From Gemmatimonadota bacterium (GTDB lineage: Bacteria; Gemmatimonadota; Gemmatimonadetes; Gemmatimonadales; Gemmatimonadaceae), in NCBI GenBank assembly GCA_003155795.1, contig PMEM01000043.1:31925-95924 (forward strand): 64,000 nucleotides of DNA, given 5' to 3'. A program made the translations under genes and the position numbers. Of the stretch, positions 13,480-39,232 are shown piece after piece; position 1 is the first letter of the stretch, and every line of letters begins with the position of its first letter. Below the pieces are notes generated by a model that was given only the letters and a program-made list of their open reading frames with translations, was not told where the DNA came from and did not search any database.

Positions 13480-16400
13480 ATGGCCCGACTTGGAGCAGAC
13501 GCAAAAGCGCAGTACTACCCGACGCCTCTTTCGATCATCGAGACGGCGGCGAATATGATCCATGCCCCGAAGGGCGCGACGATCTATGATCCGTGCGCTG
13601 GAACCGGCGCAGCCGTGGCGTTGCTCGCTCGGCTCACTGGCATGACAGCCTACGGGAACGAGCTCGATGCAGAACGCGCAGGGTCAGCTCGAGCCGTGTT
13701 GGCCGAATGCACGGTTGGCCCATACGAGACTGTGACGCGCACGCAGGGCGACCGATTCTCGGCGGTGTTCTTCAACCCTCCATACTCGGATGCAGTAGGC
13801 AATCGTGGGCGTCTCGAAACCCTGGCGCTTCCTCACGCGCTACGGGATCTGGCAACGCATGGCCTGCTATTCGGCGTCCTCCCGATCGACACTGTACGCG
13901 ATTACACGTTCATGACTCGGCTGTGCGCGACTTGCGACGTGGTTTCGGTTGCTCGTTTCCCTGGTGATCTCTACGACTCTTTCAAGCAGGTGGTGGTCCT
14001 TGCCGTGAAACGTGCGAAAGGCACGACCGGCGAGAATGTGTACGTCTTGATGCAGCGGCTTGGACTCACTCCCCAAGCGCCTGTCCGCCATGGGTATTCC
14101 AAGCCTGTTCCACACGCGCTTGATGAATTCACGGTCGAGTATGTCTGCTCCCGCGCAGTGATCGAGGTTCCGGGAAGCCGTGCGCCCGTATCGCTAATCA
14201 ATCCGGCGTCCAATCCAATGGCGCTGCTCACCGATGCGGTTGCGAAGGGCGCAACAGCTACGCCGACGTTCCGGATGCTCACACGTGGCCGCACGTCTGA
14301 ACAGGGTAGGGCGCAAGCCGAGTTTCGCCCGTTGATGCCTCTCAAGCGCGGCCATGCGAGCATGTTACTCGCCGCCGGATTTCTGGACGGTGCGGAGGTC
14401 ACGTGGGAAGGCCGGGACTACGTTGTGCGCGGTTACTCGCGGAAATACCTCACCCGTAGGTCTGAAATTGTGGGTGAGAAGGAAGAAACCGAGAAGGTGT
14501 TCACTCGTGAGAACTTCGCTACAGTGATCGTTCTGGTCGACGCCGTGAACGGTGCGATCACCGAGCTGTCCCCGGATACCGACAAAGAGCGCTACCAGGC
14601 GTTTCTGCTCGATCAGGCTGATGCACTCACCAGCGTAGTTCAGAAGCGCTACCCGGCTCGCTACAATCCAGATTCCCCCGACTTCGCTGACCCTGTGATT
14701 GATGCCGTGCTTGCACGTGTAAAAGCACCAGGGAAACTCGCCGGGCGCGATACGGGCGGCCTGTTGGCGAAGCAGGCCGAGGTTGTTCGTGCAGGAGCGC
14801 GCTCATTGCGCGACGGTGAAAAGACCATCTGGTTTAACGCGCGCATGGGAACAGGAAAGACGCTGCTACTTCCAATCGCGTGGGCCGCATCGGAAGGCAA
14901 GCGGATGGACATTCGTGGATCGAATTCGCCAAAGGCTGTCGTACTTTGCCCGGCGCACCTTACACGGAAATGGGCGCGTCACATTGACGTGATGCTCTCC
15001 GATTTCGGAGCACGCGCGATTGTATGTAAGAAGCCGTCGGACGTTGATGCGGTGTTCAACATGAACAGGCCCGGTGTGGCGGTACTATCGTTCGAGCGGT
15101 CGAAGATGGGTAACGAATGGACGCATGCGGCGAATTGTCGGACCGTTCGCGGCGAGGTTTCGCGTGTCGCCGACAACGGCAAGATCGTTTGCGAGTCCAC
15201 CAACGTTCGTGTCTGTGCATGTCCCAAGTGCGGTACCATCCAACACGAAATTATCCGTGACGAGGAAGGCGACGCCGAGGATATGATGGGCGCCCCGTAC
15301 ACTTGGAGCGATCGCGACGGCCAGCGAGTGCCAGATTTCGGAAACCGTAGAAATCGGTGTGAGAACGAAGCGTGCGGCGAACCGCTTTGGCAGGTGGTCC
15401 CGTTTAAGGGCGGCCGAAACGGGCGCCATGCGCTTCCAAAGCCGGGAGAGTCGCGGTTCAACGGGGGCCTTGCCTACGGCGGAGGTCGCGCGGCGCTCGC
15501 CCAGTATATCTCTTCGCACTACGCAGGTCGTTACTCGGTCATTGGTGACGAGGTACACAAGCTTACCGCATCGGATACTGACCGTGGTTACGCGCTTATG
15601 GACCTTTGCGCCGGTGCAAAAAAGCGAATCATGGGATCCGGGTCATGGTTCAACGGAAAGGCGAGTGCGATTTTCGGTGTGTCGCTCCGAACGCTTCCGA
15701 CCTTTGTTGAGCGCGGTTTCAAGTACGGCGACGAGGCGTCATTCGTGCGCGCATACGGCCTCATTGAACAGGTTGAATACCGTTCCGCTAGCGCAACAGG
15801 CTCGACCAGCTCACTTGGTTACTCACGTCGCGAGGATGGCGTAAGGAGTAAGGAAATCGCCGGATGCCAGCCCGACTTGATGGCTCTCATTCTCCCAAAC
15901 TGCCTTTTCTTGGAGTTAGCGGATTTGGGTGAAGCGCTCCCACCTTACAACGAATACAGCGTCCACGTCGATCTACCGGAGGACGAGGAAATTAAGGTTG
16001 CGTTCCAGTCGATTGCTACGTTTCTCGAACAGGGACGCAAGGAGGCAAGGAAGGGCGATCCAACAGCGTTGAGCAGTGGAATTCAGCTCGCACTTGGTTT
16101 TCCGTATCGGATGGAAGGTGCGGAAGAAATCATCCATCGTCGCCGTGACAATGCGGTAATCTTTTCGATGGAAGGGCGCACAATGCCAGCGGGCGGTTGG
16201 CCGTTGGATCAATTGCTCGTGCGATATTGCCGCGCAGAGCGCGCGCGTGGACGCAAAGTGTTGGTTTATCTCGGTCAGATGGTACGCCGTGACGCGAGTG
16301 GTCGCCTGATTCACCTACTCACACAAGCCGGCCTACGCGTAGGCGTGTTGCGTCCGAACGTCGCCGCCGAGGGCCGCGAAGCGTGGCTTGCGGCGATTGA

Positions 16401-16977
16401 ACCAACCATCGACGTACTGTTTACGTCGGCGCCGTTGGTTGAAACTGGACTTGACCTCTACGCGTTCCCATCGATTGTGAATTTTGGGACAGAGCGTAGC
16501 ATTTTCACCTTGCAGCAGTCGTCGCGCCGTTCGTGGAGGTTGGGCCAGACGGAGCCGGTTGAGGTTTCGTTCTGGACGTATCGCGGAACGCTCTCCCACG
16601 ATGCGTTGCCAACCATCGCGCGCGGGCTTGCAGCAGCCGCGCGGTTCAACGGCAACACGGCGGAAGGCTTGGCGGCGACGTCGGAGGAAGGCGACGTTGA
16701 TTTGGTATCCGCGTTGATGCGCCAAGTTTTGACCGGCACCATCGAGCGTGGTACGCCGTTTCCGACCCTCACAATCCCGAGCGACGAGGAAGTAGCCGAA
16801 ATGGAGAAAGTGTCGGGGGTGATGATCCGTCCCGCGCCACACGCTCCGGCTCTCCCATCCGAAGTTGACGAGGCCACGGATGCAGTAGTCGCGGAGCCCG
16901 CAGCCATGGGTGGGGATGATTGGAAAGGTCGGAAAGTGGCGCAGATGTCACTATTCGATGCGCTGCTTGCGGCATAA
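13480..16977 (+). CDS. N6-adenine DNA methyltransferase fused to SNF2/DEAD-like helicase
   Basis: 1165 aa. Methyltransferase motif I IYDPCAGTGA and motif IV FFNPPYSD. Walker A ARMGTGKT, DEVH box VIGDEVHKL, Cys4 insert CACPKCG...CENEACG. C-terminal helicase motif QQSSRRSWRLGQ. Confidence 0.85.
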   Translation: MARLGADAKAQYYPTPLSIIETAANMIHAPKGATIYDPCAGTGAAVALLARLTGMTAYGNELDAERAGSARAVLAECTVGPYETVTRTQGDRFSAVFFNPPYSDAVGNRGRLETLALPHALRDLATHGLLFGVLPIDTVRDYTFMTRLCATCDVVSVARFPGDLYDSFKQVVVLAVKRAKGTTGENVYVLMQRLGLTPQAPVRHGYSKPVPHALDEFTVEYVCSRAVIEVPGSRAPVSLINPASNPMALLTDAVAKGATATPTFRMLTRGRTSEQGRAQAEFRPLMPLKRGHASMLLAAGFLDGAEVTWEGRDYVVRGYSRKYLTRRSEIVGEKEETEKVFTRENFATVIVLVDAVNGAITELSPDTDKERYQAFLLDQADALTSVVQKRYPARYNPDSPDFADPVIDAVLARVKAPGKLAGRDTGGLLAKQAEVVRAGARSLRDGEKTIWFNARMGTGKTLLLPIAWAASEGKRMDIRGSNSPKAVVLCPAHLTRKWARHIDVMLSDFGARAIVCKKPSDVDAVFNMNRPGVAVLSFERSKMGNEWTHAANCRTVRGEVSRVADNGKIVCESTNVRVCACPKCGTIQHEIIRDEEGDAEDMMGAPYTWSDRDGQRVPDFGNRRNRCENEACGEPLWQVVPFKGGRNGRHALPKPGESRFNGGLAYGGGRAALAQYISSHYAGRYSVIGDEVHKLTASDTDRGYALMDLCAGAKKRIMGSGSWFNGKASAIFGVSLRTLPTFVERGFKYGDEASFVRAYGLIEQVEYRSASATGSTSSLGYSRREDGVRSKEIAGCQPDLMALILPNCLFLELADLGEALPPYNEYSVHVDLPEDEEIKVAFQSIATFLEQGRKEARKGDPTALSSGIQLALGFPYRMEGAEEIIHRRRDNAVIFSMEGRTMPAGGWPLDQLLVRYCRAERARGRKVLVYLGQMVRRDASGRLIHLLTQAGLRVGVLRPNVAAEGREAWLAAIEPTIDVLFTSAPLVETGLDLYAFPSIVNFGTERSIFTLQQSSRRSWRLGQTEPVEVSFWTYRGTLSHDALPTIARGLAAAARFNGNTAEGLAATSEEGDVDLVSALMRQVLTGTIERGTPFPTLTIPSDEEVAEMEKVSGVMIRPAPHAPALPSEVDEATDAVVAEPAAMGGDDWKGRKVAQMSLFDALLAA

Positions 16978-18698: not shown

Positions 18699-18789
18699 CC
18701 GTGCACATCCCCGGCATCCCGGCCGTAGACTTACAAGACGAAAGAGGTGCGCGCGTCGCTATCACTTCGGTCTGTTTCCGCGGAGCCAT

Positions 18790-19629
18790 ATGGAATCCAC
18801 AATATCAGCGCAAGAAGCTGAGAGCGAAAGAAACGAACGTATCTTCCAGAGCCTTCCAAAGCTCGGGTCCGATGCTTATATGGACCTGCTCAAACACGGG
18901 AGTGCGTCCGACCTGCCTGCGCCAGTGCTGGTTCGCGCGTATAGACAGCTCGGTACAGGCCGCGCGGCCGAGGCAACACTGGGCCGTCTGCTTACAAATG
19001 ACGCCACCTATGGCTACCTGCGGCCGCTTCGAAAGATGGCGCGGCGAAAAGTCTCGAGCCGTGACTGGTTCAGCGCTGAGGACCTGGTAGACCAGTCAAT
19101 CAGTGTGATCTCGGAGGCACTCGCTGGGCCGCGCGGTGACGGCGCATGCGAGCATTGGATCAGCTTCCTGAAGCAGCGTATGGAGGATGCATATCGTTTG
19201 TTCAACGGTCGCCGCCGTGGCCGGCAGGATCCGCCTCGGGCGGATCCGCGCCAAGATCCGGAGTCGGGACTATGGTCGGACCCAGCGGATGACCCAGGCG
19301 CACTTCACGCTTCCTGGCACGGTCGTGTGGACTCGGGACATGAGGAGTGGCTGGAGGCGTTCATCACGCGCACGCTCGCCACGATCACCGACACACGCAT
19401 CCGCGAGGTTGCCCAGGATCTCTTTAGTGCCGCGCCTTCGCCAATCTCATCACAGGCTGGCATCGAAGAGGGCGGGAAGATACCTCTAACTGAGCGATAC
19501 GGGGTCGACCGTTACAAGATCTACAGGTGGCGCCGAATTGCGCGGGCAAAACTCTTGGCAGCGCTCCGCAATCAGAATGAACGTGAAGTTGACCTAAGCT
19601 GGCTGCAAGACTCAGCCGACGACGAATGA
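18790..19629 (+). CDS. sigma-70/ECF-like regulatory protein (putative)
   Basis: Region-2-like SAEDLVDQSISV and region-4-like LTERYGVDRYKIYRWRRIARAKLLAAL. Confidence 0.4.
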   Translation: MESTISAQEAESERNERIFQSLPKLGSDAYMDLLKHGSASDLPAPVLVRAYRQLGTGRAAEATLGRLLTNDATYGYLRPLRKMARRKVSSRDWFSAEDLVDQSISVISEALAGPRGDGACEHWISFLKQRMEDAYRLFNGRRRGRQDPPRADPRQDPESGLWSDPADDPGALHASWHGRVDSGHEEWLEAFITRTLATITDTRIREVAQDLFSAAPSPISSQAGIEEGGKIPLTERYGVDRYKIYRWRRIARAKLLAALRNQNEREVDLSWLQDSADDE

Positions 19630-19704: not shown

Positions 19705-20454
19705 ATGATAACTATGGAGTCTAAGATGCCGAACACCACCCCCGCGACCGACCTCATCCAGCAACTGGTTGTACGACTAGAGCATGCATGGAACACGAGC
19801 CATGACGACAGGCTTGTCGATCGCTTGGCTGCCGAGCACCCATCGTTCGCTGAGGAACTGTACGACTTCTTTGCTGACCTCGTAGAAGCGGAGTTGGAGA
19901 GAGATCATCCGTGTCCCGAACTTGAGGCCGCTGACGAGCGTACGCGGCAATGGTTGGAGCGCGAGGGTTACAGGAATGTGGCCGAGGCGCGCCGCTTGGA
20001 TGCAATAGGGCGAACGCCGACGCTTGGCTCCGCAGGATTGTCCTCTGGTCTATCCCCAGCCACACAGTCTGTTGCCTGGCCCGCGAATATCGCGAACGAT
20101 CGGGAGCTTGGCGCGCCTCGGCCATTCTTAGGCCTGCTGAAAGAGGCAACTAGCAAACCCACGGCTGCGCTCGCGGTCGCGCTGGAACTGACAGCGGGAT
20201 TTCTCGTCGATATCTCCGACAATGCCGACCTACTGCCTGACGCTGCGCGGGCGGAACTTGCCCATCGTGCGGAGAAAGCGTGGGGACTAGATCGGCGTCG
20301 TAGTTTAGCAGCACTGGCGACGGTAGACCACCAGTTTCAAAAGGCCGCTTCACGGGAGGGGCCGTACGAAGGTCACCGGGTGACGTACGCCGAGGTTGTT
20401 GCTCGATCCGGTATGAACTCGCAGCAAAAGCGGTACTGGCTTCTCTTAGCTTGA
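19705..20454 (+). CDS. hypothetical protein, possible XRE/ImmR-like HTH partner of the downstream peptidase
   Basis: 249 aa. LLKEATSKPTAALAVALELTAGFLVDI resembles an HTH. Lies immediately upstream of an ImmA/IrrE-domain gene. Confidence 0.35.
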   Translation: MITMESKMPNTTPATDLIQQLVVRLEHAWNTSHDDRLVDRLAAEHPSFAEELYDFFADLVEAELERDHPCPELEAADERTRQWLEREGYRNVAEARRLDAIGRTPTLGSAGLSSGLSPATQSVAWPANIANDRELGAPRPFLGLLKEATSKPTAALAVALELTAGFLVDISDNADLLPDAARAELAHRAEKAWGLDRRRSLAALATVDHQFQKAASREGPYEGHRVTYAEVVARSGMNSQQKRYWLLLA

Positions 20455-20538: not shown

Positions 20539-23500
20539 ATGCGCACACTCGAGCACGCGCGCGCCAAAGGCCGCGAATACCGCACCATTCTCGGGGCCAA
20601 TCCAGATGGGCTCTGTGGCCGTATCGTGCAACACATCGCTGAGATTTGGGGGATCGAAGCGGTTGCCATCAGTCGTGCTCAGATGGGGGGAAGTGTGGGG
20701 GAGGTTAATCCGAGCTCCGGCGTCCTCAAGTATGACCGTACGCTCTCGGACGCCGATAAACTCGACCTGTTCGCGCACGAGCTTGGGCATCTCGTTCTAC
20801 ACAAGCGACTAACAGATCCAAACATCCCTCGTGACCCGGTGCTAGGCTCTGCCTATACAAATTCCGGGTCGGGGGCAATCGCCCGTTATAGCCCGCGCGC
20901 AATGGAAGAGGCACAAGCCAGCGCGTTTGCGACCGAGCTCATATGTCCGAGTGCCAAATTGTTCGCAGATTGGCGCGCCGAGAACACGGCGACTGCGGCG
21001 TCGCTTGCTGAGCGCTTTGGCGTGCCGGTCAAAGTAGCGCATGCGCAGCTAGCGCATGCGCTTCACGAGTTCGCACTGGGGGCGAATGATCCGATAGCGA
21101 AGCCACAGCGCGCGATCGCGTTTACGCCACGTCAGCTTGAGGCGGCGCGCTTCACCGGGAAGCCTGCCCTTGTCGATGCGGGTCCAGGCACTGGAAAGAC
21201 CGCGACGCTCATCAGACGGATTCAGTTCCTGCTTGAGGAAAGCAGCGCCCGACCAAGCGAGATCCTTGTTCTAACATTCAGCAACGAAGCTGCACAGGAA
21301 CTGCGCGAGCGTGTCACGTTAGCGTTTGGCGCTGACGTGACTGAAGAGATGACAATCGCAACGTTCCATGGCTTTGGAATGACGTTCCTGCATCATCACG
21401 GACAGCATGTTGGCTACGATACTGCCTTCACGATACTAGACGAGGACACACAAGCTGAGCTAGTCACGTCAATCCTTGGAAGGGTGCCGTGCGGCCAGAT
21501 CCTCACGCTCCGAGATCCCCAGGAGACCGTCGATGCAGTTGTAGAGCACATCAATTATTGCAAGCAACGGCTGCGCGACTGTGACGCACTTCAAGAATGT
21601 GTCAGCGCTTGGACACCAACACCTGACGAAACTGACGCGAATGCGGCGTCTGGGCAATTCGCCGGGCTCTATCGCGAGTACGAATCCGCCAAGCACGCAG
21701 CTAAGCAAATCGACTTCGCCGATTTGATCATGTTACCTCTGCGCGTTCTGGAACAGCAACCCGAAATCGCTGCTGCTTACCAAAGCAAGTACCCGTGGGT
21801 GCTAGTCGACGAGTTTCAGGATGTGACCCGCGCCACGTCTCGGCTACTCAGGCAGCTGTGCGGGCCAACCAACCCGCCTTGGGTGGTTGGTGACGCGCGC
21901 CAGGCGATCTATCGCTTCCTGGGTGCAGCGCCGGAAAATGTACGTGAGTTCAGTACAGATTTCCCGGGCGCTGTAGTCTTCGAGCTCGAGGAGAATTATC
22001 GGTCCGCCGCGCCCGTAGTTCGAGCAGCCAATGAGCTCGCGACTCTAATGGAAGATCCGGAGCGCGCCGATGGTCAGGTTTATGAGCGATGGCGGGCGGC
22101 TACCGATCAGACACCGCTCGGCGATATGCCCATCGTAATCGCTGAAGCGACGTCTGACTACGCGGAACGCGAAGGCGTTGCCGATCAAGTGCAAGCCTGG
22201 CTTGAGACTGGACAGGTCACACCTAGCGAGATTGCCGTTCTTGCCAGACGGAACATCGACGTGCGGAATATTATTCTAGCCCTAGCTGCGCGCGGTGTGC
22301 GAGCACAAGCAAGCGGTCTGCTGACCGCTGACGGGGCGGCGGGGGACCTCGCCGCAGCCGTCACCCTGACCGATGCGCCGGTTGCTTCGATCCCACGCGT
22401 CGCGTTTGCGCTTGGCCGGGCGCGGTTCCCAGTAGGCGCCATAAACGCTGTAGTGCATCACGCGCTGGCAACGTTCCGTAAAGACCGTGGGTTCGACATA
22501 GCTGCGCCCGATAGCGGTGCCGAACTCGCGTCAGAAGTTGAGTTTGCTCGGGCGTGTCTCACGCGAGGGCACTTTACCGCCGACGGGTTTGCAACGCTCG
22601 CCACATTCCTCTTCGATGGCGGCTGCTACCTTCGCGTCCTACTTGATGCCGCAGATGGTGCCGAGCGCGCGATGGCACTCATGGAGATCGTAAGCGCGCT
22701 ATCGCTTGCCGTGAGCTACCGCGTCACGCACCCGGCTATGCCGCCTGCGCTTGCCCGAGTTGGCTTCGCCAGTCATCTTCGCGCACGGTTGGCTGAGACG
22801 ACACCGCTTCCGATCGTCGCGCGCGCGCGACCGGACGCCGTTAGGGTAATGACTTGTCATGCGTCAAAAGGCCTAGAGTTCCCCTGTGTCATCGTCGCCG
22901 GCCAAACAGTACCAAAGGCGCGAGCGAAGTACCCTTGGCTCCCACCCTCGTGGCGCCCCGCCACGGACGAAGACGTCGAGCAAGGGGACGCGCTCCTCTT
23001 CGTCGGTGTTACTCGCGGCCAGCGCGCTGTAGTCGTGTCATTCCCGAAGCAGGCAGGAGAGGGAGTACGCGGCCACGCGAAGCAGGTTGTTCGCCTGCTG
23101 GCGCGTTGGCGCGCCGCGCACGAGTTAGAAGTAGTCTCATGGACAGCGAGCGGGAATCCTACCTCCGAAGTCACCGTCGGCCTCATTTGGGGTGGACACA
23201 CACCGGCTGTGCTCAACCTGTCCGCGCTCGACACGTCAACCTGCGCAATTCAGACCTACCTGGAGGAGTTCTTGGGGGTATCCTTCCCGATTGCCGCGCG
23301 CGCACTGTACCCGGTCTTCTTCTCCGTTACGCGCCGCGTCCTTCGGCAGGTCGTCACGCGCGCCAATGAGACAGGACGGCTCGTCGAAGAGGCGGCAGTA
23401 CGTTCGATGGTCGCCGATGCGTGGCCTGAAGGAGAATTCGCTGAGCATCCCCACATTGGGATCTACCTTGATGCGACGCTTCGTATGGTGCTTGATTTCG

Positions 23501-23973
23501 CAAAGTTGTACCGACCTGTAGGAGTGCCGATTACATCGTTCGATCCCGAACTCACCGTTACTGCCGAAGGCGAAGAGCCAGCAGTGCGGCTCGATCTGAT
23601 TGGCCATTTTCTCCAGGCTGATGGGCGCATCGTCGCCCTTAGCTTCCGACCTGAATCACTCGGTGCAGACGCTAAGGATGGGGTTCTTAATTGGAGTGCG
23701 AAGCGCATCAATAGTAAGAAGAGGATGTCTTTCGTACTCCTGGAGCGGCGTACCCCAGGCATACTTCCGCACTTTTTTTCCGGAGCCGACGGGGAGATGT
23801 TCAGTTTCAAGTGGAGCACGCGGAAAGACTCGCTAACGAACGAGACGGCAAAGGTGATCGGTAAGCTGGAGGCGCTCTCGCACGGTGAGTTTGCGACCAA
23901 AATCTCGGCGTATACATGCGACCGCTGTCGCGCTCGTGTTAGCTGCCCTCACTGGGTGGGAGCACTCGGTTAG
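20539..23973 (+). CDS. ImmA/IrrE (M78) metallopeptidase - UvrD/PcrA helicase - Cas4/AddB-type PD-(D/E)XK nuclease fusion
   Basis: 1144 aa. HEXXH in FAHELGHLVLH. Helicase motifs DAGPGTGKT, VLVDEFQDV, ENYRS, CHASKGLEF, VGVTRG. C-terminal nuclease with TSTCAIQTYL and CDRCRARVSC cysteines. Confidence 0.85.
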   Translation: MRTLEHARAKGREYRTILGANPDGLCGRIVQHIAEIWGIEAVAISRAQMGGSVGEVNPSSGVLKYDRTLSDADKLDLFAHELGHLVLHKRLTDPNIPRDPVLGSAYTNSGSGAIARYSPRAMEEAQASAFATELICPSAKLFADWRAENTATAASLAERFGVPVKVAHAQLAHALHEFALGANDPIAKPQRAIAFTPRQLEAARFTGKPALVDAGPGTGKTATLIRRIQFLLEESSARPSEILVLTFSNEAAQELRERVTLAFGADVTEEMTIATFHGFGMTFLHHHGQHVGYDTAFTILDEDTQAELVTSILGRVPCGQILTLRDPQETVDAVVEHINYCKQRLRDCDALQECVSAWTPTPDETDANAASGQFAGLYREYESAKHAAKQIDFADLIMLPLRVLEQQPEIAAAYQSKYPWVLVDEFQDVTRATSRLLRQLCGPTNPPWVVGDARQAIYRFLGAAPENVREFSTDFPGAVVFELEENYRSAAPVVRAANELATLMEDPERADGQVYERWRAATDQTPLGDMPIVIAEATSDYAEREGVADQVQAWLETGQVTPSEIAVLARRNIDVRNIILALAARGVRAQASGLLTADGAAGDLAAAVTLTDAPVASIPRVAFALGRARFPVGAINAVVHHALATFRKDRGFDIAAPDSGAELASEVEFARACLTRGHFTADGFATLATFLFDGGCYLRVLLDAADGAERAMALMEIVSALSLAVSYRVTHPAMPPALARVGFASHLRARLAETTPLPIVARARPDAVRVMTCHASKGLEFPCVIVAGQTVPKARAKYPWLPPSWRPATDEDVEQGDALLFVGVTRGQRAVVVSFPKQAGEGVRGHAKQVVRLLARWRAAHELEVVSWTASGNPTSEVTVGLIWGGHTPAVLNLSALDTSTCAIQTYLEEFLGVSFPIAARALYPVFFSVTRRVLRQVVTRANETGRLVEEAAVRSMVADAWPEGEFAEHPHIGIYLDATLRMVLDFAKLYRPVGVPITSFDPELTVTAEGEEPAVRLDLIGHFLQADGRIVALSFRPESLGADAKDGVLNWSAKRINSKKRMSFVLLERRTPGILPHFFSGADGEMFSFKWSTRKDSLTNETAKVIGKLEALSHGEFATKISAYTCDRCRARVSCPHWVGALG

Positions 23974-24101
23974 CAGATGCGCTAAACGCGGGATTCGGCC
24001 TACCCATCGACGCACATCAGCCTGAGTGCGGCCGTAGGAGGTGTAGGGCGGCCAGAGTGGCTGCTCTGCACCTCTTTCGTTTGTTACTCTGGAGATACAA
24101 A

Positions 24102-24437
24102 ATGACCACAACGGCACACGGCGCAGACGCGTCGCAGGACGAAGCAGGGGACGAGCGCCACGGACCACCGCACGTCCAGCTACAAGTCCAGACCCCACGC
24201 GGGCTCTGGAGCATGACTGAGCCGGAAGAGGCGCCCCGCCGGCCAGACTATCCCATCTCCACAAAGATCCAAGTCGTGATCGACGACGCACGAACAGTCT
24301 TCAAGTTCGTCGAGAATGACAGCAAGTACACTTTGTTCCTGGGTGGAGAGATGCTTGCGCCCGAACGGACGCTCGCGAGCTATCATATTGCGCCCGACGC
24401 ACTCTTGGTGCTCTCCGTCCAAGGTGGGAACGCGTGA
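24102..24437 (+). CDS. bilA: ubiquitin-like beta-grasp protein (Bil-type Ubl)
   Basis: ATG at 24102 with a GGAGA SD. Ends LAPERTLASYHIAPDALLVLSVQGG-NA, which parallels the ubiquitin C-terminus. First gene of the Ubl-E2-JAB-E1 operon. Confidence 0.8.
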   Translation: MTTTAHGADASQDEAGDERHGPPHVQLQVQTPRGLWSMTEPEEAPRRPDYPISTKIQVVIDDARTVFKFVENDSKYTLFLGGEMLAPERTLASYHIAPDALLVLSVQGGNA

Positions 24438-24892
24438 GCGTTCCCGTCTCTCTGTCACTTGAGACCGTGCGCTGCGAACTCGCCGCTGCGACAGCTTATG
24501 CCGCGGCTGCGGGGCTCGAGCTTGATGCCAGTGAATTGAGCGAGAATACGCTTCAGTTTCATGTTGTGTTCTGGAACATGCAGCGCGAGCGATTCACGGC
24601 AGAATTCGATTGTCGTGATTACTCAATGTATCCGCCGACGATTGAATTCGTGGATGCGACCCGCACCCTGCGAGGTACGCCCGCTCTTTATCCAGCAGGG
24701 TTCCATGGAATGCCATGCGTATGCGCGCGCTATAATCGCAAAGCATACACAGAGCGCGGCGGGCCTCACGGAGACTGGCGGCTGGTTGACTGGCAATTAC
24801 CTACCGGCAACGGGGTTGCAATCGACAGTCTGGCTATGATTCTAAGCGACCTTCATAGTAAGATTTCGCAGTCTGCAGGGAGACTGGGATGA
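24434..24892 (+). CDS. bilB: E2-like ubiquitin-conjugating enzyme homologue
   Basis: GTG start overlaps the Ubl stop (GTGA). UBC-like core FTAEFDCRDYSMYPPTIEFV. Candidate catalytic Cys in FHGMPCVCARYN. Confidence 0.75.
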   Translation: MSVPVSLSLETVRCELAAATAYAAAAGLELDASELSENTLQFHVVFWNMQRERFTAEFDCRDYSMYPPTIEFVDATRTLRGTPALYPAGFHGMPCVCARYNRKAYTERGGPHGDWRLVDWQLPTGNGVAIDSLAMILSDLHSKISQSAGRLG

Positions 24893-25422
24893 GTGACAAG
24901 GTCCCCATCATCTACATCCCTGCAACCTTACTCGGTGCCACAGGGATGCTTCTCGCTAGCTTCGCAGAGGAGTTACCCTCCGAAGGCATTGTTTACTGGT
25001 TCGGACTCGAGCTCGGGCCGCGGGCCATCGTGGCGTCGCTCGTCGTCCCAAATGCCGACTCATCTCGTGGAGACATCGTGACTTCAGCTGCCGCGAACGC
25101 TGAAGCACTTGGGGCGGTTGTGGGAACCCCGCTCGTTCTCCTCGGACAAGCTCACTCGCACCCACGCGCGAATGTACGCCACTCGCCTGTCGATGACCGC
25201 GAGACGTACGCGCAGTTTCCCGGTGCACTCTCAGTCGTTGTGCCGTTCTTCAGCCGGAACGGGATCGACCTCTCACGCTGCGGTGTGCATCGTCATCTAG
25301 CGGGCCGGTATCAGCTTATCCCACGCGACCAAGTGCAACAACACGTGAGAGTCGTTCCTGGCATCGTTGACTTCCGGCGTGATCGATTCACTACTGAGAT
25401 GTCCCGTGCACGTGCACTCTGA
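24889..25422 (+). CDS. bilC: JAB/JAMM metalloisopeptidase (deubiquitinase-like)
   Basis: ATGA overlap with the E2 stop. JAMM motif HSHPRANVRHSPVD (HxHx7Sx2D) with an upstream Glu (PSEGIVYW). Confidence 0.85.
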   Translation: MSDKVPIIYIPATLLGATGMLLASFAEELPSEGIVYWFGLELGPRAIVASLVVPNADSSRGDIVTSAAANAEALGAVVGTPLVLLGQAHSHPRANVRHSPVDDRETYAQFPGALSVVVPFFSRNGIDLSRCGVHRHLAGRYQLIPRDQVQQHVRVVPGIVDFRRDRFTTEMSRARAL

Positions 25423-26920
25423 ACAGGCGATAACATCGCCGCTCACGCCGGCCGACCGACTTCGTGTTGCTGATCGCTGGCGGACGGCGGAGTCGTTCTA
25501 CCGGGAGCGCGATGACCGCACCACGCGTAATGTTGGTGACCTCGCGACACACGCGTACCGTGCCGTTGAAATCCACGTCGATCCCGGCGCCGCGGCTAAT
25601 CTCACCGTGCAGCGTATGGCACTCACCGTAGCAAATCTCACCGCCCGTTGGGCGCGTCGGGTGCGTATTGTGCTCGCAGCCGACGCGCCTCTTGCGCCCA
25701 TTCTCCGTCGGGACGGTGCGGCGTGCCTCAGCGATCGACTGATTCGCGAGATGTGCGCGGCTGACCCGTTCGGCGAGTTCAATATAGCTGTGACGGGCAC
25801 AAGTGTCGCCAATGACGGCCGAGCACCGTTACGCCTCTTTGTCGGCCCATGGACGCTCCACCCACAAGCATTGAGCAGTGAAGACTATCAGGTGCACGCG
25901 TCATCGTGGACAGCTTTGGGGAGACGCACGGGAACGCAAGGGCGGCTTCTAGGAATCATGAACGGAGCAGAAGCAACCGCAGCGGCGGCAGGCTTAGCCG
26001 GCGCCCTCGGTGCCGCAGACCTTTTCAAGCGAGCTGTTGGTCACGTCCACGCGAACTGGATGCCTACATTCGCTTGGGATACCTGGGCGGGTATCCTCGA
26101 CACCTCACCGATGGCATGGTCAACGGTTGGACATCGCTCTGTACCGGAGCACTTGGATTTCGGCGAGACTCTGCTCGCGGGCGTTGGTGCGATCGGCTCA
26201 GCTTTTATCTACCTCGCTGATTTTATGCCGCTCAGCGGTGCGCTCACGCTGCTCGACCGAGACGCCATCGAGATCACGAACTTGAACCGAACGCCGCTAT
26301 TTACGGTCATGCACGCGCTCGACGAACCGAAGAAGACGGGAGCAGTTGCTGCGTACCTCACCGGCCGAGGTGTCAAAGTCGAAAGTCTGACGGGACCATG
26401 GCGGGAGCACGCAGCGGCGCTGGCAGAGCGGCCTTTCGACGCTTGGATCAGCCTCATAAATGAAGACGGTGCGTGGGCTGAGGTGCCGTTCCAACTCCCT
26501 CCTGTAGTCCTCCACGGTACGACGACGAGCGGCTGGGGCTTCGGTATGGGGCGACACATCCCAGGGCGCGAGGACTGCACGCTCTGCCGCCTCCCGCGGC
26601 CGGCCACGGAGTTCCGCGGGCCTTGTGCCCAGGGCGAAATCGCCCTGGGTGTGGACCGGGAGCCCGTCCGGGCATCGCTCCCGTTCCTCTCGACGGCGGC
26701 CGCCGCCTTGGTACTTACCGCGTACCTTCAGCTTGGGGAAGGATCTGCTGCGGTGTCATTACCGAACGACGTGTCCGCTGATCTAGGCTCCGGTCTCCCG
26801 GCGCTGATCGCCCTGCATCGTGGTCCAAGCGTGGGGTGTCGAGGATGCCATGCGCAAAGCTCTGTGGCATGGCACTCACGCGGCGGTAGAGGTCGATTCG
26901 CACATTACTCAACCCCGTGA
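25367..26920 (+). CDS. bilD: E1-like ThiF/MoeB-family activating enzyme
   Basis: Rossmann motif LLAGVGAIGSAF followed by LLDRDAIEITNLNRTP. CTLCRLP Cys pair. The roughly 265-aa N-terminal extra domain is consistent with an inactive adenylation domain. The real start may be GTG at 25406 or 25412, overlapping the JAB stop. Confidence 0.8.
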   Translation: MTSGVIDSLLRCPVHVHSEQAITSPLTPADRLRVADRWRTAESFYRERDDRTTRNVGDLATHAYRAVEIHVDPGAAANLTVQRMALTVANLTARWARRVRIVLAADAPLAPILRRDGAACLSDRLIREMCAADPFGEFNIAVTGTSVANDGRAPLRLFVGPWTLHPQALSSEDYQVHASSWTALGRRTGTQGRLLGIMNGAEATAAAAGLAGALGAADLFKRAVGHVHANWMPTFAWDTWAGILDTSPMAWSTVGHRSVPEHLDFGETLLAGVGAIGSAFIYLADFMPLSGALTLLDRDAIEITNLNRTPLFTVMHALDEPKKTGAVAAYLTGRGVKVESLTGPWREHAAALAERPFDAWISLINEDGAWAEVPFQLPPVVLHGTTTSGWGFGMGRHIPGREDCTLCRLPRPATEFRGPCAQGEIALGVDREPVRASLPFLSTAAAALVLTAYLQLGEGSAAVSLPNDVSADLGSGLPALIALHRGPSVGCRGCHAQSSVAWHSRGGRGRFAHYSTP

Positions 26921-27209: not shown

Positions 27210-27782
27210 CTAAACTGGCGCAGTGGTAAGGCCCAGTTGGAGCAGAGCTAGTGGTGCAGTAAGAGGACGTGCTTGCCAGAAGCTCCCAAATAACAAGAAC
27301 GGCAAGGCGATAAGTGCGCCCGTAAGTGCACTCGGCTGGATGAGGACTTCGAGCACGAGATCGAAGACCCAAATCCGCCTGAGAGGCTCCAATAGGTCCC
27401 ACGACGAAATCCTATCGCCCTCGTTAGCGGCTGCATACGCGCCGCTCTTCGATATGTCTGCCACCGGGCTGGTCGGTACAGTTTTAGCTACCTCCCGATG
27501 GAACTCGCGTAGGACGGCATATGCTTCGGCGATGTCTTGAAACCTGCGTGTTGCTACGGCACGCTCCCCCGGCGTGAAAAAACGGTCAGGATGGAATCGA
27601 CTAGCGAGAGTTCTGAAGCGTGAACGAATCTCATCAAGACTTGCAGTCGACTCTAGCTGTAATAGGGCGCATGCCTCCACCATATTCATATTGTTACCGG
27701 AAGGTGCGGCGCCCAAGCCTTGCTTGCTATAGAGCGTATTGCCATAAATAGGAAGGCGATCGTTCGACGATCGCCTGACCAC
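27210..27782 (-). CDS. J-domain (DnaJ-like) protein with C-terminal transmembrane segments
   Basis: LDEIRSRFRTLASRFHPDRF...FQDIAEAYAVL has the HPD motif. Hydrophobic C-terminus ALTGALIALPFLLFGSFW. An internal Met start is possible. Confidence 0.7.
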   Translation of the reverse strand: MVRRSSNDRLPIYGNTLYSKQGLGAAPSGNNMNMVEACALLQLESTASLDEIRSRFRTLASRFHPDRFFTPGERAVATRRFQDIAEAYAVLREFHREVAKTVPTSPVADISKSGAYAAANEGDRISSWDLLEPLRRIWVFDLVLEVLIQPSALTGALIALPFLLFGSFWQARPLTAPLALLQLGLTTAPV

Positions 27783-29682: not shown

Positions 29683-31511
29683 GGGGTCTGCTCAGATTTT
29701 GGTGAAAGGTGAGGCGAGGAGTTAGGCTTCAGGGATCGTTTTGGAGGTGCTGCACCACATGGATGCATTGACTGCGAGCCCGCTGTGCCCGTCTCCGCTG
29801 GAGCTACAGCTCGCCGAGATTCGCTTTGCCGCGCCGGAGCTGATCGTCACCGCAACGGCTCGCCGACGAGTGGTCGCCTGCCCCAAGTGTGGCCACGCCA
29901 GCACGCGGGTGCACAGCCGGTACAGTCGGACGCTCTCCGATCTCCCATGGCACGGGCTACGAGTGCGCCTTGACGTCCACGTTCGCCGCTTCTTCTGCGA
30001 TGTACCGGGCTGCAAGCGGCGGATATTCACCGAGCGACTCCCGAAGACCGCCTCCTCCTATGCCCGGCGCACCGCACGTGCAGCGTCGGCGCTGGAAGCT
30101 ATCGGGCTTGCTCTTGGCGGTCGTGCTGGCGCCCGGCTCGCAGCAGCACTGGGTCTCGCCGGTGCTCCATCGGAAATCCTCTCGATCCTATCCGCCATTC
30201 ATGCCGTCGTAAGCGACTGCAGTAGTGACCGCGCTACATCCACTGTGCGGGTGTTGGGCGTGGATGACTGGGCGTGGCGCAAGGGCCAGCGGTATGGCAC
30301 GATCTTGGTCGACCTGGAGCGGCATCACGTAATCGACTTACTACCGGACCGTGAGTCTGACACGCTCGTCGCATGGCTGTGTGCGCATCCCGGGGTCGAG
30401 TTCATCAGCCGGGACCGCGCAGGTGGTTACGCAGATGCTGCAAGGCGCGGAGCGCCCGGCGCCATTCAAATCGCTGATCGTTTCCACCTGCTGCGCAATC
30501 TGACCGATGCCGCACAGCACGCGTTGGAACGACATCACACCATCGTGCGAGCAATCGGTCTCGATGCAAAGCCGCCGACGCCGGTATTGCTGAAACGTGG
30601 TGGCCCTGTGTCACGCCGATGGACACTTGGAGCGAGCGATCTGCCAGCCAATCCACCGAACGATCCGCCGCTCGCGGAACAGCGCAAGCTCGCCCGGCGT
30701 GCTCGGCGACAGTCGCGCTACGACGAGATGATCGCGCTTCGTACGGGTGGCGCGTCGGTCGCGGCCATCCACCGCTCGCTCGGGCTCAGCCGAAAGACGA
30801 TAATGCGCTGGACAGGAGCAGGCGCCTTCCCCGAGCGGCAGCCCGCAGTGAGAAGAGAGACGTCGTTAACACCACACGCTGAGTATCTCGCCGAGCGGTG
30901 GCGTGGCGGATGTCACAACGTGACCCAACTGTGGCGCGAGCTCCGCGACGGGCGCGGATTTCACGGTGGCCTCACCACTGTACTGGCGTGGGCCCGATTG
31001 CATCTGCGTGGAACGGTGATACCGAAGATACCGGAAGCATCGCTCGCGGTGACGGCGCGTCCGACATCACGTCCGTCCTCACGCCGCGCGGCCTGGCTGC
31101 TGACCGCTCCATTGGATCAGCTCAAAGCGCCGGAACTGCGCTACGTCGAGGCGATCTGCACCGAGTCGAGCGCACTTGCTGCCGTGCATAGTCTCGCGAT
31201 GGAGTTTCGCGGTATGCTCAAGACTCATGATCCTAACGCGCTCGCGCTCTCGCTCGATACGGCCGAGCGCAGCGAGCTTCGATCCCTTGCTGCGGGTCTG
31301 CGGCGTGACAAGGACGCGGTGCTCGCAGCCATCCTCTTCCGCTGGAGTAACGGGCAGGTCGAAGGCCAGGTGAACCGGCTCAAGCTCATCAAGCGCACGA
31401 TGTACGGTCGGGCCGGCTTCGCGCTGCTCCGACGACGTGTGCTCGCCGCCTGACTGCAACGAACCCCAACTCCGAGAGGCGAGTGCCTTCATCAAAAGTT
31501 TGTCAGACCCC
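29683..31511 (+). mobile_element. ISL3-family insertion sequence
   Basis: Imperfect terminal IRs of about 26 bp sharing the 8-bp tip GGGGTCTG (29683-29709, and reverse complement of 31486-31511). They enclose a single ISL3 transposase gene. No target-site duplication seen. Confidence 0.8.
29741..31453 (+). CDS. ISL3 family transposase
   Basis: N-terminal zinc finger CPKCGH...RRFFC. DDE region DDWAWRKGQRYGTILVDLERHHVIDLLPDRE. C-terminus NGQVEGQVNRLKLIKRTMYGRAGFALLRRRVL. Confidence 0.9.
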   Translation: MEVLHHMDALTASPLCPSPLELQLAEIRFAAPELIVTATARRRVVACPKCGHASTRVHSRYSRTLSDLPWHGLRVRLDVHVRRFFCDVPGCKRRIFTERLPKTASSYARRTARAASALEAIGLALGGRAGARLAAALGLAGAPSEILSILSAIHAVVSDCSSDRATSTVRVLGVDDWAWRKGQRYGTILVDLERHHVIDLLPDRESDTLVAWLCAHPGVEFISRDRAGGYADAARRGAPGAIQIADRFHLLRNLTDAAQHALERHHTIVRAIGLDAKPPTPVLLKRGGPVSRRWTLGASDLPANPPNDPPLAEQRKLARRARRQSRYDEMIALRTGGASVAAIHRSLGLSRKTIMRWTGAGAFPERQPAVRRETSLTPHAEYLAERWRGGCHNVTQLWRELRDGRGFHGGLTTVLAWARLHLRGTVIPKIPEASLAVTARPTSRPSSRRAAWLLTAPLDQLKAPELRYVEAICTESSALAAVHSLAMEFRGMLKTHDPNALALSLDTAERSELRSLAAGLRRDKDAVLAAILFRWSNGQVEGQVNRLKLIKRTMYGRAGFALLRRRVLAA

Positions 31512-33109: not shown

Positions 33110-34957
33110 ATGCCGGATAATCCCCGAGATGGAGTTTCGGGAACGCGCTCGCAACGACAGGCGCTTTCACAGTTTATGCGATTACTTCGGCTCGCTCATC
33201 CATATTGGGGAGGCCTAACCAAAGGTCTCTTTCTAGGCATCATCTTGGGCTTGCTCGGGCTAATAACTCCCTACGCCTCGAAACTCCTATTCGACAATGT
33301 GTATCCGGCTCGCGACCTAACGCTACTAAACGTCGTCGTCATCGGAGTAGCGGTCATATCTATAACGACCACGACGATGGGGGCGCTACGCGGGTACTAC
33401 GGCCAAGTGGTCACAGGGAAGCTGGGAAGCGCTGTCGGACTTCTGTACTTCAATCATGTACAGCACCTCCCAGTCGCATTCTTTGACGTGCATCGGGTTG
33501 GCGAGGTCATGAGCAGAGTAGGAGACATTCGCACCGCGCTCGGAACCGTCTCCAAGGTTATACAGTCGGTCTTGGTAAATGGCGTTTTTCTCATTTGTGT
33601 TCCACCCTTCTTAATCGCACTCAGTTGGAAGCTCTCGTTGATTGCCGTCGTGACTACACCTCTTACTGTTGGTGTTACTGCGATAACAAGCCGAGCCGTT
33701 CAACGGTACTTTCGACTCAGCGCAGAAGCGTTCGCCGAGCTTAGCGCGATTCAGGTCGAGGCATTCACGCACATTCGCACAATCAAGGCAATGGCCGGCG
33801 AGCACACGTTTTTCGCCAGCGCGCGCGCCCAAACAGTCAGTACGATTCAGGCCCAACTACGCGCGGCCCGCGTCGGCTCGATAGTGACTATTGTTAATGG
33901 GGTCGTGCGCATAGCGGGTACGGGAGTTCTAACCTGGTATGCGTGGCGATTGATCATCGCGGGTGAATTGACGCTGGGGACCTACGTAGCCTTCACGGCC
34001 TATCTCGGCTATCTAACAGGACCAATAGGTCAACTAACGGATCTCTTTTCGGACTTTCAGCAAACGGCAGTCTCTCTTACCCGCGCATTTGAGTATCTCG
34101 ACATTCTCCCTGAGCAGGACCCGCGCCTCGCTTACGTTCCGCCGTCTGCTCCGACCAAAGGTCGCGGTAGTCTGAAGCTAATCGCGGTCAACCTATCCTA
34201 TGGGTCGGGAAGGCCTATCCTAAAAGAGATATCAGCAGTTCTCGAGGCGGGCAGCATCACGGCTATTGTCGGGCCGAGCGGCGCCGGAAAGTCGTCAATT
34301 TTACGTCTCCTCTGCCGCATGAGCGAACCAACTTCCGGGCAAATCTTGTATGGAGACAGCCCCATCAGTGAATTGAAGATTGGCGACTTCCGTCGCGACG
34401 TCGCGGTGGTCTGGCAAGACCCGGCTCTTTTTCGGGGCACCATTTGGGACAACCTCGCAATGGGAACTTTGGCGGTGTCGATGCAACGAGTTCGCGAAGT
34501 GGTGGCACTGTGCCAGCTCGACAGCCTAATTGACGAGCTTCCACAGCGGTACGAAACGCCAGTTGCAGAATGGGGTGCGACTCTATCAGGTGGACAGCGG
34601 CAGCGGATTGCAATCGCACGTGCCCTTCTCCGGGATACCCCGATCCTGTTGCTCGACGAAGCGACCGCGCAAGTCGATGTGAGAATGGAGAGAGAACTAT
34701 TGACGGCGTTGTTGTCGTGGGCGACGACCAAAATCGTTGTAATTGTGACGCACCGCGTCACGACCGCAGCGATAGCCAATCAGATCTGCGTTGTGGAGGC
34801 GGGGAGAATTACGGCTTCCGGTACACACGAAACGGTTACGGCTGCGAGTCCGATGTATCGCGAATTATGGCAGGCAGCACAAGCAAGTGACACCTTTGCG
34901 GTTGATTGTCCTACAGGAATATTGCGCGCGCGCGACGGGTTGCCTGCGTTCGGGTGA
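33110..34957 (+). CDS. ABC exporter (fused permease/ATPase, no peptidase domain)
   Basis: Six-TM ABC_membrane-like N-terminal half. Walker A GPSGAGKSS, signature LSGGQRQRIAIARAL, Walker B ILLLDEAT. Confidence 0.85.
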   Translation: MPDNPRDGVSGTRSQRQALSQFMRLLRLAHPYWGGLTKGLFLGIILGLLGLITPYASKLLFDNVYPARDLTLLNVVVIGVAVISITTTTMGALRGYYGQVVTGKLGSAVGLLYFNHVQHLPVAFFDVHRVGEVMSRVGDIRTALGTVSKVIQSVLVNGVFLICVPPFLIALSWKLSLIAVVTTPLTVGVTAITSRAVQRYFRLSAEAFAELSAIQVEAFTHIRTIKAMAGEHTFFASARAQTVSTIQAQLRAARVGSIVTIVNGVVRIAGTGVLTWYAWRLIIAGELTLGTYVAFTAYLGYLTGPIGQLTDLFSDFQQTAVSLTRAFEYLDILPEQDPRLAYVPPSAPTKGRGSLKLIAVNLSYGSGRPILKEISAVLEAGSITAIVGPSGAGKSSILRLLCRMSEPTSGQILYGDSPISELKIGDFRRDVAVVWQDPALFRGTIWDNLAMGTLAVSMQRVREVVALCQLDSLIDELPQRYETPVAEWGATLSGGQRQRIAIARALLRDTPILLLDEATAQVDVRMERELLTALLSWATTKIVVIVTHRVTTAAIANQICVVEAGRITASGTHETVTAASPMYRELWQAAQASDTFAVDCPTGILRARDGLPAFG

Positions 34958-35048
34958 CCGCCTGGCGCGGATGGCTCAACACAAGCTCCTGGCTAGAAGC
35001 ACGAGTAGTGTATCGACCACACACTGTCGTTGAACTCTAGGAGAAAAG

Positions 35049-37034: not shown

Positions 37035-37059
37035 CGCTCTCACGGGGCGAAAACTTTGT

Positions 37060-39039: not shown

Positions 39040-39232
39040 TCCCGGCGTCAGCGACGCTCACCACCACCGTCATTAGACGCTGTGGCCCACCGAGTGCTAA
39101 AGATTTGGGCGCGCGCTAGACCTGAGCAAAGAGCCGACCGATGTTCGGCCAACTTGAATCGCACGCGTTGTCGGATGTTACGCAGACATCGATTTTGTTG
39201 TCTCTTAGTACCGCCCGGACGCTAGATCACCG

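Follow-up and report, generated by a model that had tools for sequence, protein, structure and literature searches.

The gene at positions 20539-23973 of a 64,000-nucleotide stretch of DNA from a Gemmatimonadota bacterium (assembly GCA_003155795.1, contig PMEM01000043.1, positions 31,925 to 95,924 of the forward strand; hereafter the window) encodes a fusion protein that joins an M78-type peptidase, a UvrD-type helicase and a predicted Cas4/AddB-like iron-sulphur (Fe-S) domain. The gene is the last of a three-gene cassette whose order, gene B - gene A - fusion, is conserved, and it is followed by an apparently Bil-like operon for a ubiquitin-like (Ubl) protein. We propose, with confidence that is about evenly balanced, that the fusion is the signal-sensing protease of this cassette and controls transcription of the adjacent Ubl operon. 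The proposal starts from features that were directly observed, namely the domain identities, the conservation of catalytic residues, the gene order, the linkage to Ubl operons and a duplicated promoter-like motif. The genes of the cassette and the domains of the fusion are located as follows.

18790-19629, + strand: gene B, sigma-like, 279 amino acids (aa), first gene of the cassette
19705-20454, + strand: gene A, putative XRE-like helix-turn-helix (HTH) protein, 249 aa (242 aa if the start is the ATG at 19726)
20539-23973, + strand: fusion gene, 1144 aa, third gene of the conserved cassette
20680-21051, + strand: Peptidase_M78 domain of CapP/IrrE/ImmA type, residues 48-171 of the fusion, from the Pfam match and invariant catalytic residues
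21124-23046, + strand: UvrD/PcrA-type superfamily 1 (SF1) helicase core, residues 196-836, from Pfam, NCBIfam and PDB matches
23086-23970, + strand: C-terminal Cas4/AddB/AdnA-like Fe-S domain, residues 850-1144, from a fold match and four cysteines

An earlier description of the window from its letters alone (the sequence-only reading) had claimed a single open reading frame (ORF) of 1144 aa with peptidase, helicase and nuclease-like motifs, and all of the quoted motifs were confirmed at their expected places: FAHELGHLVLH at residues 78-88, GPGTGKT at 215-221, DEFQD at 424-428, ENYRS at 485-489, KGLEF at 777-781, VTRG at 824-827, TSTCAIQTY at 899-907 and CDRCRARVSC at 1127-1136. Its M78 peptidase and full UvrD motor were likewise borne out by the domain searches. 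Pfam placed Peptidase_M78 (PF06114) on residues 48-171 at 32.1 bits against a cut-off of 22 (40-47 bits in distant M78-UvrD relatives), UvrD-helicase on residues 196-476 (E = 2e-64) and UvrD_C on residues 766-836. NCBIfam and PDB sequence searches agreed on an SF1 core of the PcrA/UvrD/Rep type, with UvrD (4c2u) matching residues 189-833 at E = 6e-57 and AdnB also matching the helicase. As a single sequence the N-terminus found nothing significant in the PDB; a profile was needed to reach CapP (7t5t_A, E = 2e-8), which was its best match, with HELGH and the Glu-bearing helix aligned, while IrrE scored E = 0.8 only. The alignment stops at CapP residue 173 and UvrD-helicase begins at fusion residue 196, straight after the peptidase; the domain layout and the CapP profile alignment found the C-terminal HTH and GAF-like domain of CapP, which makes up the groove for single-stranded DNA, to be absent from the fusion.

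Conservation of the catalytic residues was examined in alignments of 43 and of 28 sequences, in both of which H80, E81 and H84 of the peptidase HExxH were invariant. The third zinc ligand, E124, was also invariant, and its helix, E-A-x-A-(N/D)-x-F-A, aligned with the EAQADLFAS segment of CapP. The spacing between HExxH and this third ligand is 40 residues in the fusion versus 27 in CapP, implying an insertion of 14 residues relative to CapP. In the helicase, GPGTGKT (Walker A), DEFQD (DExQD), Q455, R488 and T825-R826 were invariant among the 43 homologues, motifs III-VI and the Arg finger included. Since the peptidase residues and all helicase motifs are invariant, both enzymatic activities are apparently under selection.

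The C-terminal domain (residues 850-1144) had no Pfam match, PF12705 and PF01930 included, and no PDB sequence match even with the family profile. It was modelled with AlphaFold from a 20-sequence alignment (predicted local distance difference test score, pLDDT, 88.4; predicted template modelling score, pTM, 0.82), and Foldseek comparison of the model with the PDB gave the AdnA nuclease domain as the best match (4e-6), followed by ACE1 (1e-5), an Argonaute-associated protein of the Cas4 family, with Dna2, RecE, Cas4 SSO0001 and AddB as further matches. The model thus points to a RecB/Cas4 Fe-S nuclease fold. The cysteines of the C...CxxCx5C pattern (C902, C1127, C1130 and C1136) are invariant in the 43 homologues and are kept in distant relatives too. 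Of the PD-(D/E)XK nuclease domain claimed by the sequence-only reading, the fold and the one-plus-three cysteines therefore stand, whereas its nuclease ExK is not present: the canonical motif III (D/E)xK was not found in the alignment of the 43 homologues, and the strand expected to bear it, C-terminal to the motif II strand R-L-D1019-L-I, reads I-V-A-L-S-F-R1037-P-E1039-S. R1037 and E1039 are invariant and the position just before R1037 is variable; D1019, E1039, H970 and H972 are conserved within the fusion family. Alignment with distant relatives showed that Arg occupies the canonical acid position, and Glu the Lys position, in the fusion family, and that the acid position is Arg also in L120, L046, L056 and L076 (related loci are given by such handles). 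L120, whose protein is a 29% identical relative, matches Pfam PDDEXK_1 at E = 8e-16 and has R-V-K-T-G as its motif III strand; the Chloroflexi relatives have R-x-H/R-T-G there and have also lost the motif II Asp, with the Fe-S cysteines retained. From these alignments the domain would be either catalytically inactive or strongly altered, and its nuclease activity is doubtful. Because the motif III acid is lost superfamily-wide while the Fe-S cysteines are kept, a DNA-binding sensor domain fits better than an effector.

This bears on the sensor-effector role that the sequence-only reading had suggested for the fusion. As an alternative to our proposal, the helicase and nuclease domain would unwind or degrade phage DNA directly, like AddAB, AdnAB and GajB of Gabija, with the M78 peptidase regulating the protein itself or processing a partner, and the Ubl operon serving as a co-regulated second arm of one defence island. 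The helicase motifs are indeed all intact, and the strongest PADLOC matches of the fusion were GajB helicase models, but these matches are confined to the generic helicase core (neither PADLOC nor NCBIfam gave a dedicated model for the fusion, A or B). Likewise, the C-terminal fold resembles the AdnA, AddB and Cas4 nucleases, and the conserved D1019, E1039, H970 and H972 could form a non-canonical active site, yet (D/E)xK is missing, Arg stands at the acid position in the family and in the four relatives named above, and distant relatives have lost the motif II Asp. The occurrence of the cassette without Ubl operons would suit such an enzyme, but the alternative gives no reason for the sigma-like gene, the HTH gene or the duplicated promoter motif described below. 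We consider it unlikely. The effector nuclease is thus the part of the earlier claim that is in doubt, whereas the unit with the Ubl operon holds. The partner genes B and A were absent from the sequence-only reading, and they move the interpretation from a sensor-effector to the sensor-protease of a transcriptional switch.

To describe the cassette, ORFs were called and clustered in 40 GTDB loci. In at least 29 of 38 sources the gene directly 5' of the fusion was A (about 190-250 aa); the position 5' of A was taken by gene B (14 sources) or by one of two alternatives, clusters c7 and c15. Gene A had no Pfam match. Its AlphaFold model (pLDDT 83) consists, in order, of a helical N-terminal domain, a disordered linker (residues 97-127), a five-helix bundle (134-198), the motif A207-A208-x-R210 and two terminal helices. 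The top Foldseek matches were all HTH proteins of the XRE type (NGO0477, DdrO, ClgR, SinR, the N-terminal domain of CapH and C-proteins), which superposed on some 60 residues at root-mean-square deviations of 2-3 Å, though the E values were about 1; the best PDB match of the sequence profile was the XRE protein NGO0477 (3kxa) at E = 0.048. The A-A-x-R210 motif is invariant in A and located C-terminal to the HTH-like fold, and its invariant junction between x and R is one that we take to resemble the DdrO cleavage site between L106 and R107. By analogy with known M78 systems, A is a candidate substrate of the M78 peptidase, as a repressor or an anti-sigma factor. In six loci (L015, L021, L025, L029, L036 and L039) a small DUF4160-like ORF lies between B and A (for example at L015 8699-9998), and A carries an N-terminal extension, with PF10387 (DUF2442) in the database homologues P0141, P0144 and P0148; the DUF4160-like ORF and the extended A have the look of a toxin-antitoxin-like pair that became fused to the cassette.

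The window protein B had no significant Pfam match, BLASTP of B against a true sigma factor found nothing, and hhalign gave no signal for B against c7 or for A against sigma factors. The proteins at its position in other loci were more informative. Cluster c15 is a clear sigma-70 protein (Sigma70_r2 1e-9, Sigma70_r4 2e-5), and hhalign detected a weak similarity between B and c15 in region 2 (P = 0.002). Sigma70_r2 was matched at E <= 0.5 by 11 of the 24 proteins from the gene B position, and Sigma70 r2/r4 matches were significant for the B-position genes of L024, L042, L076 and L120, with the Sigma70_r4 match of the first cassette gene reaching 8e-8 in L042 and 3e-11 in L076. Against the PDB, the B profile returned sigma-2 domains of extracytoplasmic function (ECF) sigma factors (sigma-E 1or7, SigR 1h3l and others) at E 0.2-0.3 only. 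These comparisons suggest that gene B probably encodes a divergent sigma-70/ECF-like factor.

Directly 3' of the fusion gene lies the following operon.

24102-24437, + strand: Ubl (BilA-like), 111 aa, C-terminus ...QGGNA, tblastn identity of 55-72% in 10 loci
24434-24892, + strand: E2-like (BilB-like), 152 aa, Cys present, weak match to E. aridi BilB
24889-25422, + strand: JAB peptidase (BilC-like), 177 aa, PADLOC BilC E = 1.9e-6
25367-26920, + strand: E1 (BilD-like, ThiF), up to 517 aa, Pfam ThiF 2.4e-8, PADLOC BilD 5e-12

The gene order is Ubl-E2-JAB-E1, and in the Ubl the C-terminal Gly is followed by a short tail. PADLOC gave no BilA or BilB match in this operon, matching BilC and BilD only. 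Judged by these genes the operon can be classed as Bil-like, which agrees with the Bil-type operon that the sequence-only reading had placed on the same strand, next to the fusion; the distance of 128 nucleotides (nt) that it gave is also right, the Ubl ATG being at 24102. The longest E1 ORF, which starts with TTG, shares its first 56 nt (25367-25422) with the JAB gene, and since alignments of homologues start at residues 10-37, the true start is probably further downstream.

Linkage of the cassette to Ubl operons was searched for by tblastn with the window neighbours and with genes of other loci. A Bil-like Ubl-E2-JAB-E1 operon was found directly 3' of the fusion in ten GTDB loci (L015, L016, L019, L020, L021, L025, L027, L029, L036 and L039), with 43-72% identity across the operons and 37-51% between the fusion proteins, and the same arrangement was present on a further contig (L198). 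A JAB-E1 fusion lies 3' of the cassette in L014 and L040. In eight other loci (L001, L002, L008, L018, L024, L028, L030 and L034) the Ubl system is divergently transcribed and contains Multi_ubiq (2e-12), Prok-E2_E (5e-36) and a JAB-ThiF fusion (4e-32); this is apparently a second, uncharacterised Ubl system, an example being L008 5934-8090 on the minus strand. Overall, a Ubl operon of one of these three architectures, each at a fixed position relative to the cassette, flanks it in 20 of the 26 loci uncut by a nearby contig end. The distant relative L120 (8511-16134) has the order sigma(r4), 197-aa gene, fusion, followed by a 147-aa gene, a JAB-ThiF fusion and DUF6527. This layout 3' of the fusion is that of Type I Bub operons (10.1101/2024.11.21.623966), so the L120 operon may be described as Type I Bub-like. 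Among 200 loci fetched, 21 of 50 non-redundant M78-UvrD loci had an E1-like gene in their flanks, versus 1 of 146 UvrD loci without M78 (Fisher's exact test, p = 1.4e-13, which is indicative only because the loci share phylogeny and are not independent). The synteny with Ubl-E2-JAB-E1 operons for which the sequence-only reading had proposed a test is thus conserved, in ten GTDB loci and L198, with other Ubl systems at ten more loci. In related loci, a small HNH endonuclease gene (c16) stands straight after the fusion in L017, L030 and L038 and after the Ubl operon in L016, and genes for single-stranded DNA-binding protein (SSB; c14) recur in L005, L014, L024 and L034.

Such tight linkage across several Ubl system types could also mean that the fusion, or A, is a substrate or client of the Ubl machinery, in which case conjugation would prime or tether the helicase-protease and the Ubl operon would regulate the fusion. 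Cap2 of Type II CBASS conjugates the CD-NTase in this way. E1/E2/JAB modules that modify the sensor of their own system thus have a precedent (reviewed in the introduction to 10.1101/2024.11.21.623966), but the characterised Bil systems modify phage tail proteins (10.1101/2024.11.21.623966). Moreover, no conserved acceptor feature was identified, the M78, HTH and sigma gene content points to transcriptional control, and the cassette is also found without Ubl genes. We therefore regard this explanation as very improbable.

Transcriptional control by the cassette is further suggested by a repeated motif in the window, one copy of which is followed by a hairpin.

18703-18726, + strand: ECF-type promoter-like motif on the B side, GCACAT-N14-GCCGT, about 65 nt 5' of gene B
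24012-24035, + strand: ECF-type promoter-like motif on the Ubl side, between the fusion stop and the Ubl start
24036-24076, + strand: hairpin with a 19-bp stem (-33 kcal/mol) and a T-rich tract

The motif is bipartite, with the consensus CGCACAy-N13-15-(G)TCCGTw, and its B-side copy lies 65-90 nt 5' of gene B across loci. Both copies were found in the window, L015, L019, L020, L021, L025, L029, L039 and L040; the B-side copy was additionally found in L003, L009 and L023, and the Ubl-side copy in L016 and L027. In ten aligned Ubl-side sites the GC-CAC and CCGT columns are invariant. A loose pattern of the motif matched the window 8 times versus 5.3 expected and is not rare, so the evidence is its positional recurrence and not its frequency. 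Its geometry (N15-16 spacing, CGTATA-type -10) resembles that of ECF promoters such as those of the sigma-W type. A sigma gene that shares one motif between its own operon and a neighbouring one is a hallmark of ECF regulons under auto-regulation, and we take the two copies to be putative promoters. Together with the synteny, the common motif supports the view of the sequence-only reading that the fusion and the Ubl operon could form a functional unit.

Only 4-5 nt separate the start of the hairpin from the Ubl-side motif, and in most loci a T-run follows the hairpin. It was found at the same position in nine of ten loci (the window, L015, L016, L020, L021, L025, L027, L039 and L040), with z = -3 to -6 versus shuffled sequences, and no hairpin followed the B-side motif in the loci examined for hairpins. 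Its arms vary in sequence between loci yet stay complementary, the 5' arm often having TGTAGAGG. An Rfam scan of 16.9-27.4 kb assigned no RNA family to the hairpin, and in a scan for generic sigma-70 promoters and terminators, in which counts were at chance, the hairpin at 24036-24076 alone stood out. Its role might be to shield the Ubl operon from read-through as a terminator, to act as an attenuator or to stabilise a 5' end. Loci of the divergent type have mirrored repeats in the common intergenic region, with 35-nt arms in L008 (8135-8169 / 8252-8286) and 16-22-nt arms in L018 (8495-8514 / 8533-8552), L024 and L028.

An M78 peptidase, an HTH protein and a sigma-like gene are together typical of transcriptional control, and for their mode of action we infer a DNA signal, cleavage of A and a role for B as follows. 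The UvrD motor, together with the Fe-S Cas4/AddB-like domain, would load on DNA ends or on damaged or foreign DNA, unwind it and expose single-stranded DNA (ssDNA). This exposure would license the N-terminal CapP/IrrE-type zinc peptidase to cleave protein A, the probable site being A-A-x/R210, just after the HTH. Loss of A, be it a repressor or an anti-sigma factor, would free or derepress the sigma-like B, which would then transcribe its own operon B-A-fusion, in a positive feedback, as well as Ubl-E2-JAB-E1, from the two copies of CGCACAy-N13-15-GTCCGTw.

Several findings weigh against this mechanism. The sigma identity of B is weakly supported for the window protein itself; the HTH assignment of A comes from scores short of significance (E about 1 with Foldseek, E = 0.048 with the profile), and its role is ambiguous between repressor and anti-sigma factor. 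Simple sigma activation does not explain a strong terminator-like hairpin between the Ubl-side motif and the Ubl start. No Ubl operon was found within 10 kb in six of the 26 complete loci (L003, L006, L012, L031, L033 and L035), and gene A is also absent from two of these six. Finally, CapH/CapP, the regulator to which we compare the cassette below, is usually divergent from its operon, whereas the cassette at Bil-like loci is co-directional and upstream.

The fusion family is rare. A word-indexed search found at least 120 full-length clusters, with 42-66% identity, and its members are annotated merely as 'UvrD-helicase domain-containing protein' or PcrA. A profile of the C-terminal domain matched 133 clusters at E <= 1e-3 among 1.84 billion representatives, and the domain was not seen in any other architecture among these: the full-length matches (about 1090-1250 aa) all bear it at the C-terminus, and the shorter ones are read as gene fragments. 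The hosts are mainly Acidobacteriota (Blastocatellia, Pyrinomonadaceae) and Gemmatimonadota, and also Entotheonella. A genome scan with the single fusion sequence found no relative, whereas an alignment-based rescan did. A metagenome scan returned generic UvrD helicases almost exclusively, plus one partial family member. Distant M78-UvrD proteins, which share 21-25% identity with the window protein in the N-terminal domain, occur with the same three-gene layout in Burkholderiaceae, Ktedonobacterales, Chloroflexota and one metagenome contig. Two copies of the fusion look decayed. In L037 (2-2801) the fusion breaks off near residue 812 and continues directly as the final 83 residues of E1, a join that implies a deletion; in L027 (725-4182) it is split into ORFs of 756 aa and 388 aa by a frameshift or an assembly error. 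A scan of viral contigs found one fragment (L080) and no full-length member of the family, which lends no support to a phage origin.

Its gene content marks the window as a variable island. Positions 13480-16977 (+) encode a protein of 1165 aa, DUF6094/N6 methyltransferase at the N-terminus and helicase at the C-terminus, with a weak PADLOC match to mad2 of MADS (2.6e-11); methylases are found at 635-1690 and 7711-9009, a RecJ-like gene at 1767-3629 and an SLT transglycosylase at 4406-5620. Together, the DUF6094 protein, methylases, transglycosylase and RecJ-like gene suggest a conjugative or anti-restriction island. Just after E1, a gene for a DnaJ-domain protein (27210-27782, minus strand) is convergent with the operon and is not conserved in related loci. 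A further part of the window (29741-31453 and 33110-52349) holds an ISL3 transposase followed by a lanthipeptide-type cluster, with an ABC transporter, a LanC-like gene (35049-37034), erythromycin-esterase-like, S41 peptidase and HlyD genes, a C39-ABC exporter and a LanB dehydratase (49089-52349).

Set in such an island, the B-A-fusion cassette might be a mobile-element switch of the ImmR/ImmA kind, in which DNA damage leads to excision or transfer and Ubl operons are frequent cargo. The methylases, SLT transglycosylase, DUF6094 methylase-helicase, RecJ-like gene and ISL3 transposase of the window agree with this, as do SSB, HNH, integrase-fragment and rve genes near related loci, and ImmA/ImmR of ICEBs1 is the founding M78/XRE pair. 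The promoter motif, however, precedes the Ubl gene and not integrase or transfer genes, three unrelated types of Ubl operon stand at fixed positions, and viral contigs hold no full-length member. We find this alternative improbable and retain the reading of the fusion as sensor-protease for the Ubl operon.

Full-text searches of the literature, whose coverage was incomplete, found no description of an M78-UvrD-nuclease fusion or of its link to Ubl operons. With somewhat less than even confidence, we suggest that the cassette is an undescribed immune-operon switch, in which an AddAB-like motor, acting on DNA ends or producing ssDNA, and a repressor-cleaving protease of the LexA/CapH type are combined in one polypeptide as a 'RecBCD-to-SOS' relay and, through an ECF-like sigma factor, plugged into at least three or four Ubl families (Bil-like, Bub Type I-like and Multiubiquitin/Prok-E2_E/JAB-E1). 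How bacterial Ubl defence operons (Bil, Bub and relatives) are activated is only partly known. To our knowledge, the known regulators CapW, CapH/CapP and CapK/CapS all sense DNA damage passively; the cassette suggests instead an active route, in which ATP would drive the production of the DNA signal or the search for it and a sigma factor would pass it on, with the Cas4/AddB Fe-S domain apparently retooled from nuclease to sensor. The defined promoter motif and the candidate cleavage site are practical handles that can be tested directly, and the cassette may serve as a natural marker for uncharacterised Ubl systems such as that of the Multiubiquitin/Prok-E2_E/JAB-ThiF type.

Comparison with known systems placed the fusion between DNA-processing enzymes and regulatory proteases. 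Like AddAB, AdnAB, RecBCD and Cas4, it has a UvrD-family motor followed by a RecB/Cas4-fold domain with C...CxxCx5C, and AdnA is its best structural match; it differs from AddAB, AdnAB and RecBCD in being one polypeptide with an N-terminal protease, in having R-P-E in place of (D/E)xK and in having no partner helicase subunit at the locus. ECF sigma/anti-sigma modules with regulated proteolysis (RseA-DegS/RseP and RsiW-PrsW) share the order of sigma factor, small partner and protease, and an auto-regulated motif resembling -35/-10 (CGT) with N15-16 spacing. In contrast to these, the fusion protease is cytoplasmic and coupled to a DNA motor, A is XRE-like with no recognised anti-sigma domain, and the sigma assignment of B is weak. 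In IrrE/PprI-DdrO of Deinococcus and ImmA-ImmR of ICEBs1, an M78 peptidase cleaves an XRE repressor after DNA damage, and the Foldseek matches of A include DdrO, but these systems are without helicase, Fe-S domain or sigma factor, and IrrE matched the fusion at 0.8 only. CapK+CapS and CapW/BrxR are further regulators that respond to DNA damage and lie 5' of operons of the Bil, Bub and CBASS kinds (PMC13373217); the former are a kinase and its STAS partner, the latter a WYL-domain regulator, and all are unrelated to the proteins of the cassette.

The closest known system is CapH+CapP, already known beside Bil and Bub operons, where it flanks 15% of Type II Bil and 31% of Bub operons (10.1101/2023.09.26.559546; 10.1101/2024.11.21.623953). 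CapP is an ssDNA-activated peptidase that cuts the XRE repressor CapH between F82 and R83 and so induces immune operons (Calloji et al. 2026 preprint, PMC13228613). The operons that the pair induces upon DNA damage are those of CBASS, Bil and Bub (Lau et al. 2022; Calloji et al. 2026). CapP is the closest solved relative of the M78 domain of the fusion, a small partner, tentatively HTH-like in the cassette, is adjacent in both systems, both stand beside Ubl operons, and the F82/R83 site of CapH may be likened to the invariant x/R210 just after the predicted HTH of A. The HTH/GAF sensor half of CapP is, however, replaced in the fusion by the UvrD helicase and the Fe-S nuclease-like domain, and the cassette has a third component, the sigma-like gene; CapH/CapP targets repressor-occluded sigma-70 promoters, whereas the target promoters of the cassette look ECF-type. 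The system is best read as a helicase- and sigma-coupled variant of the CapH/CapP kind of immune-operon regulator, attached to several Ubl families.

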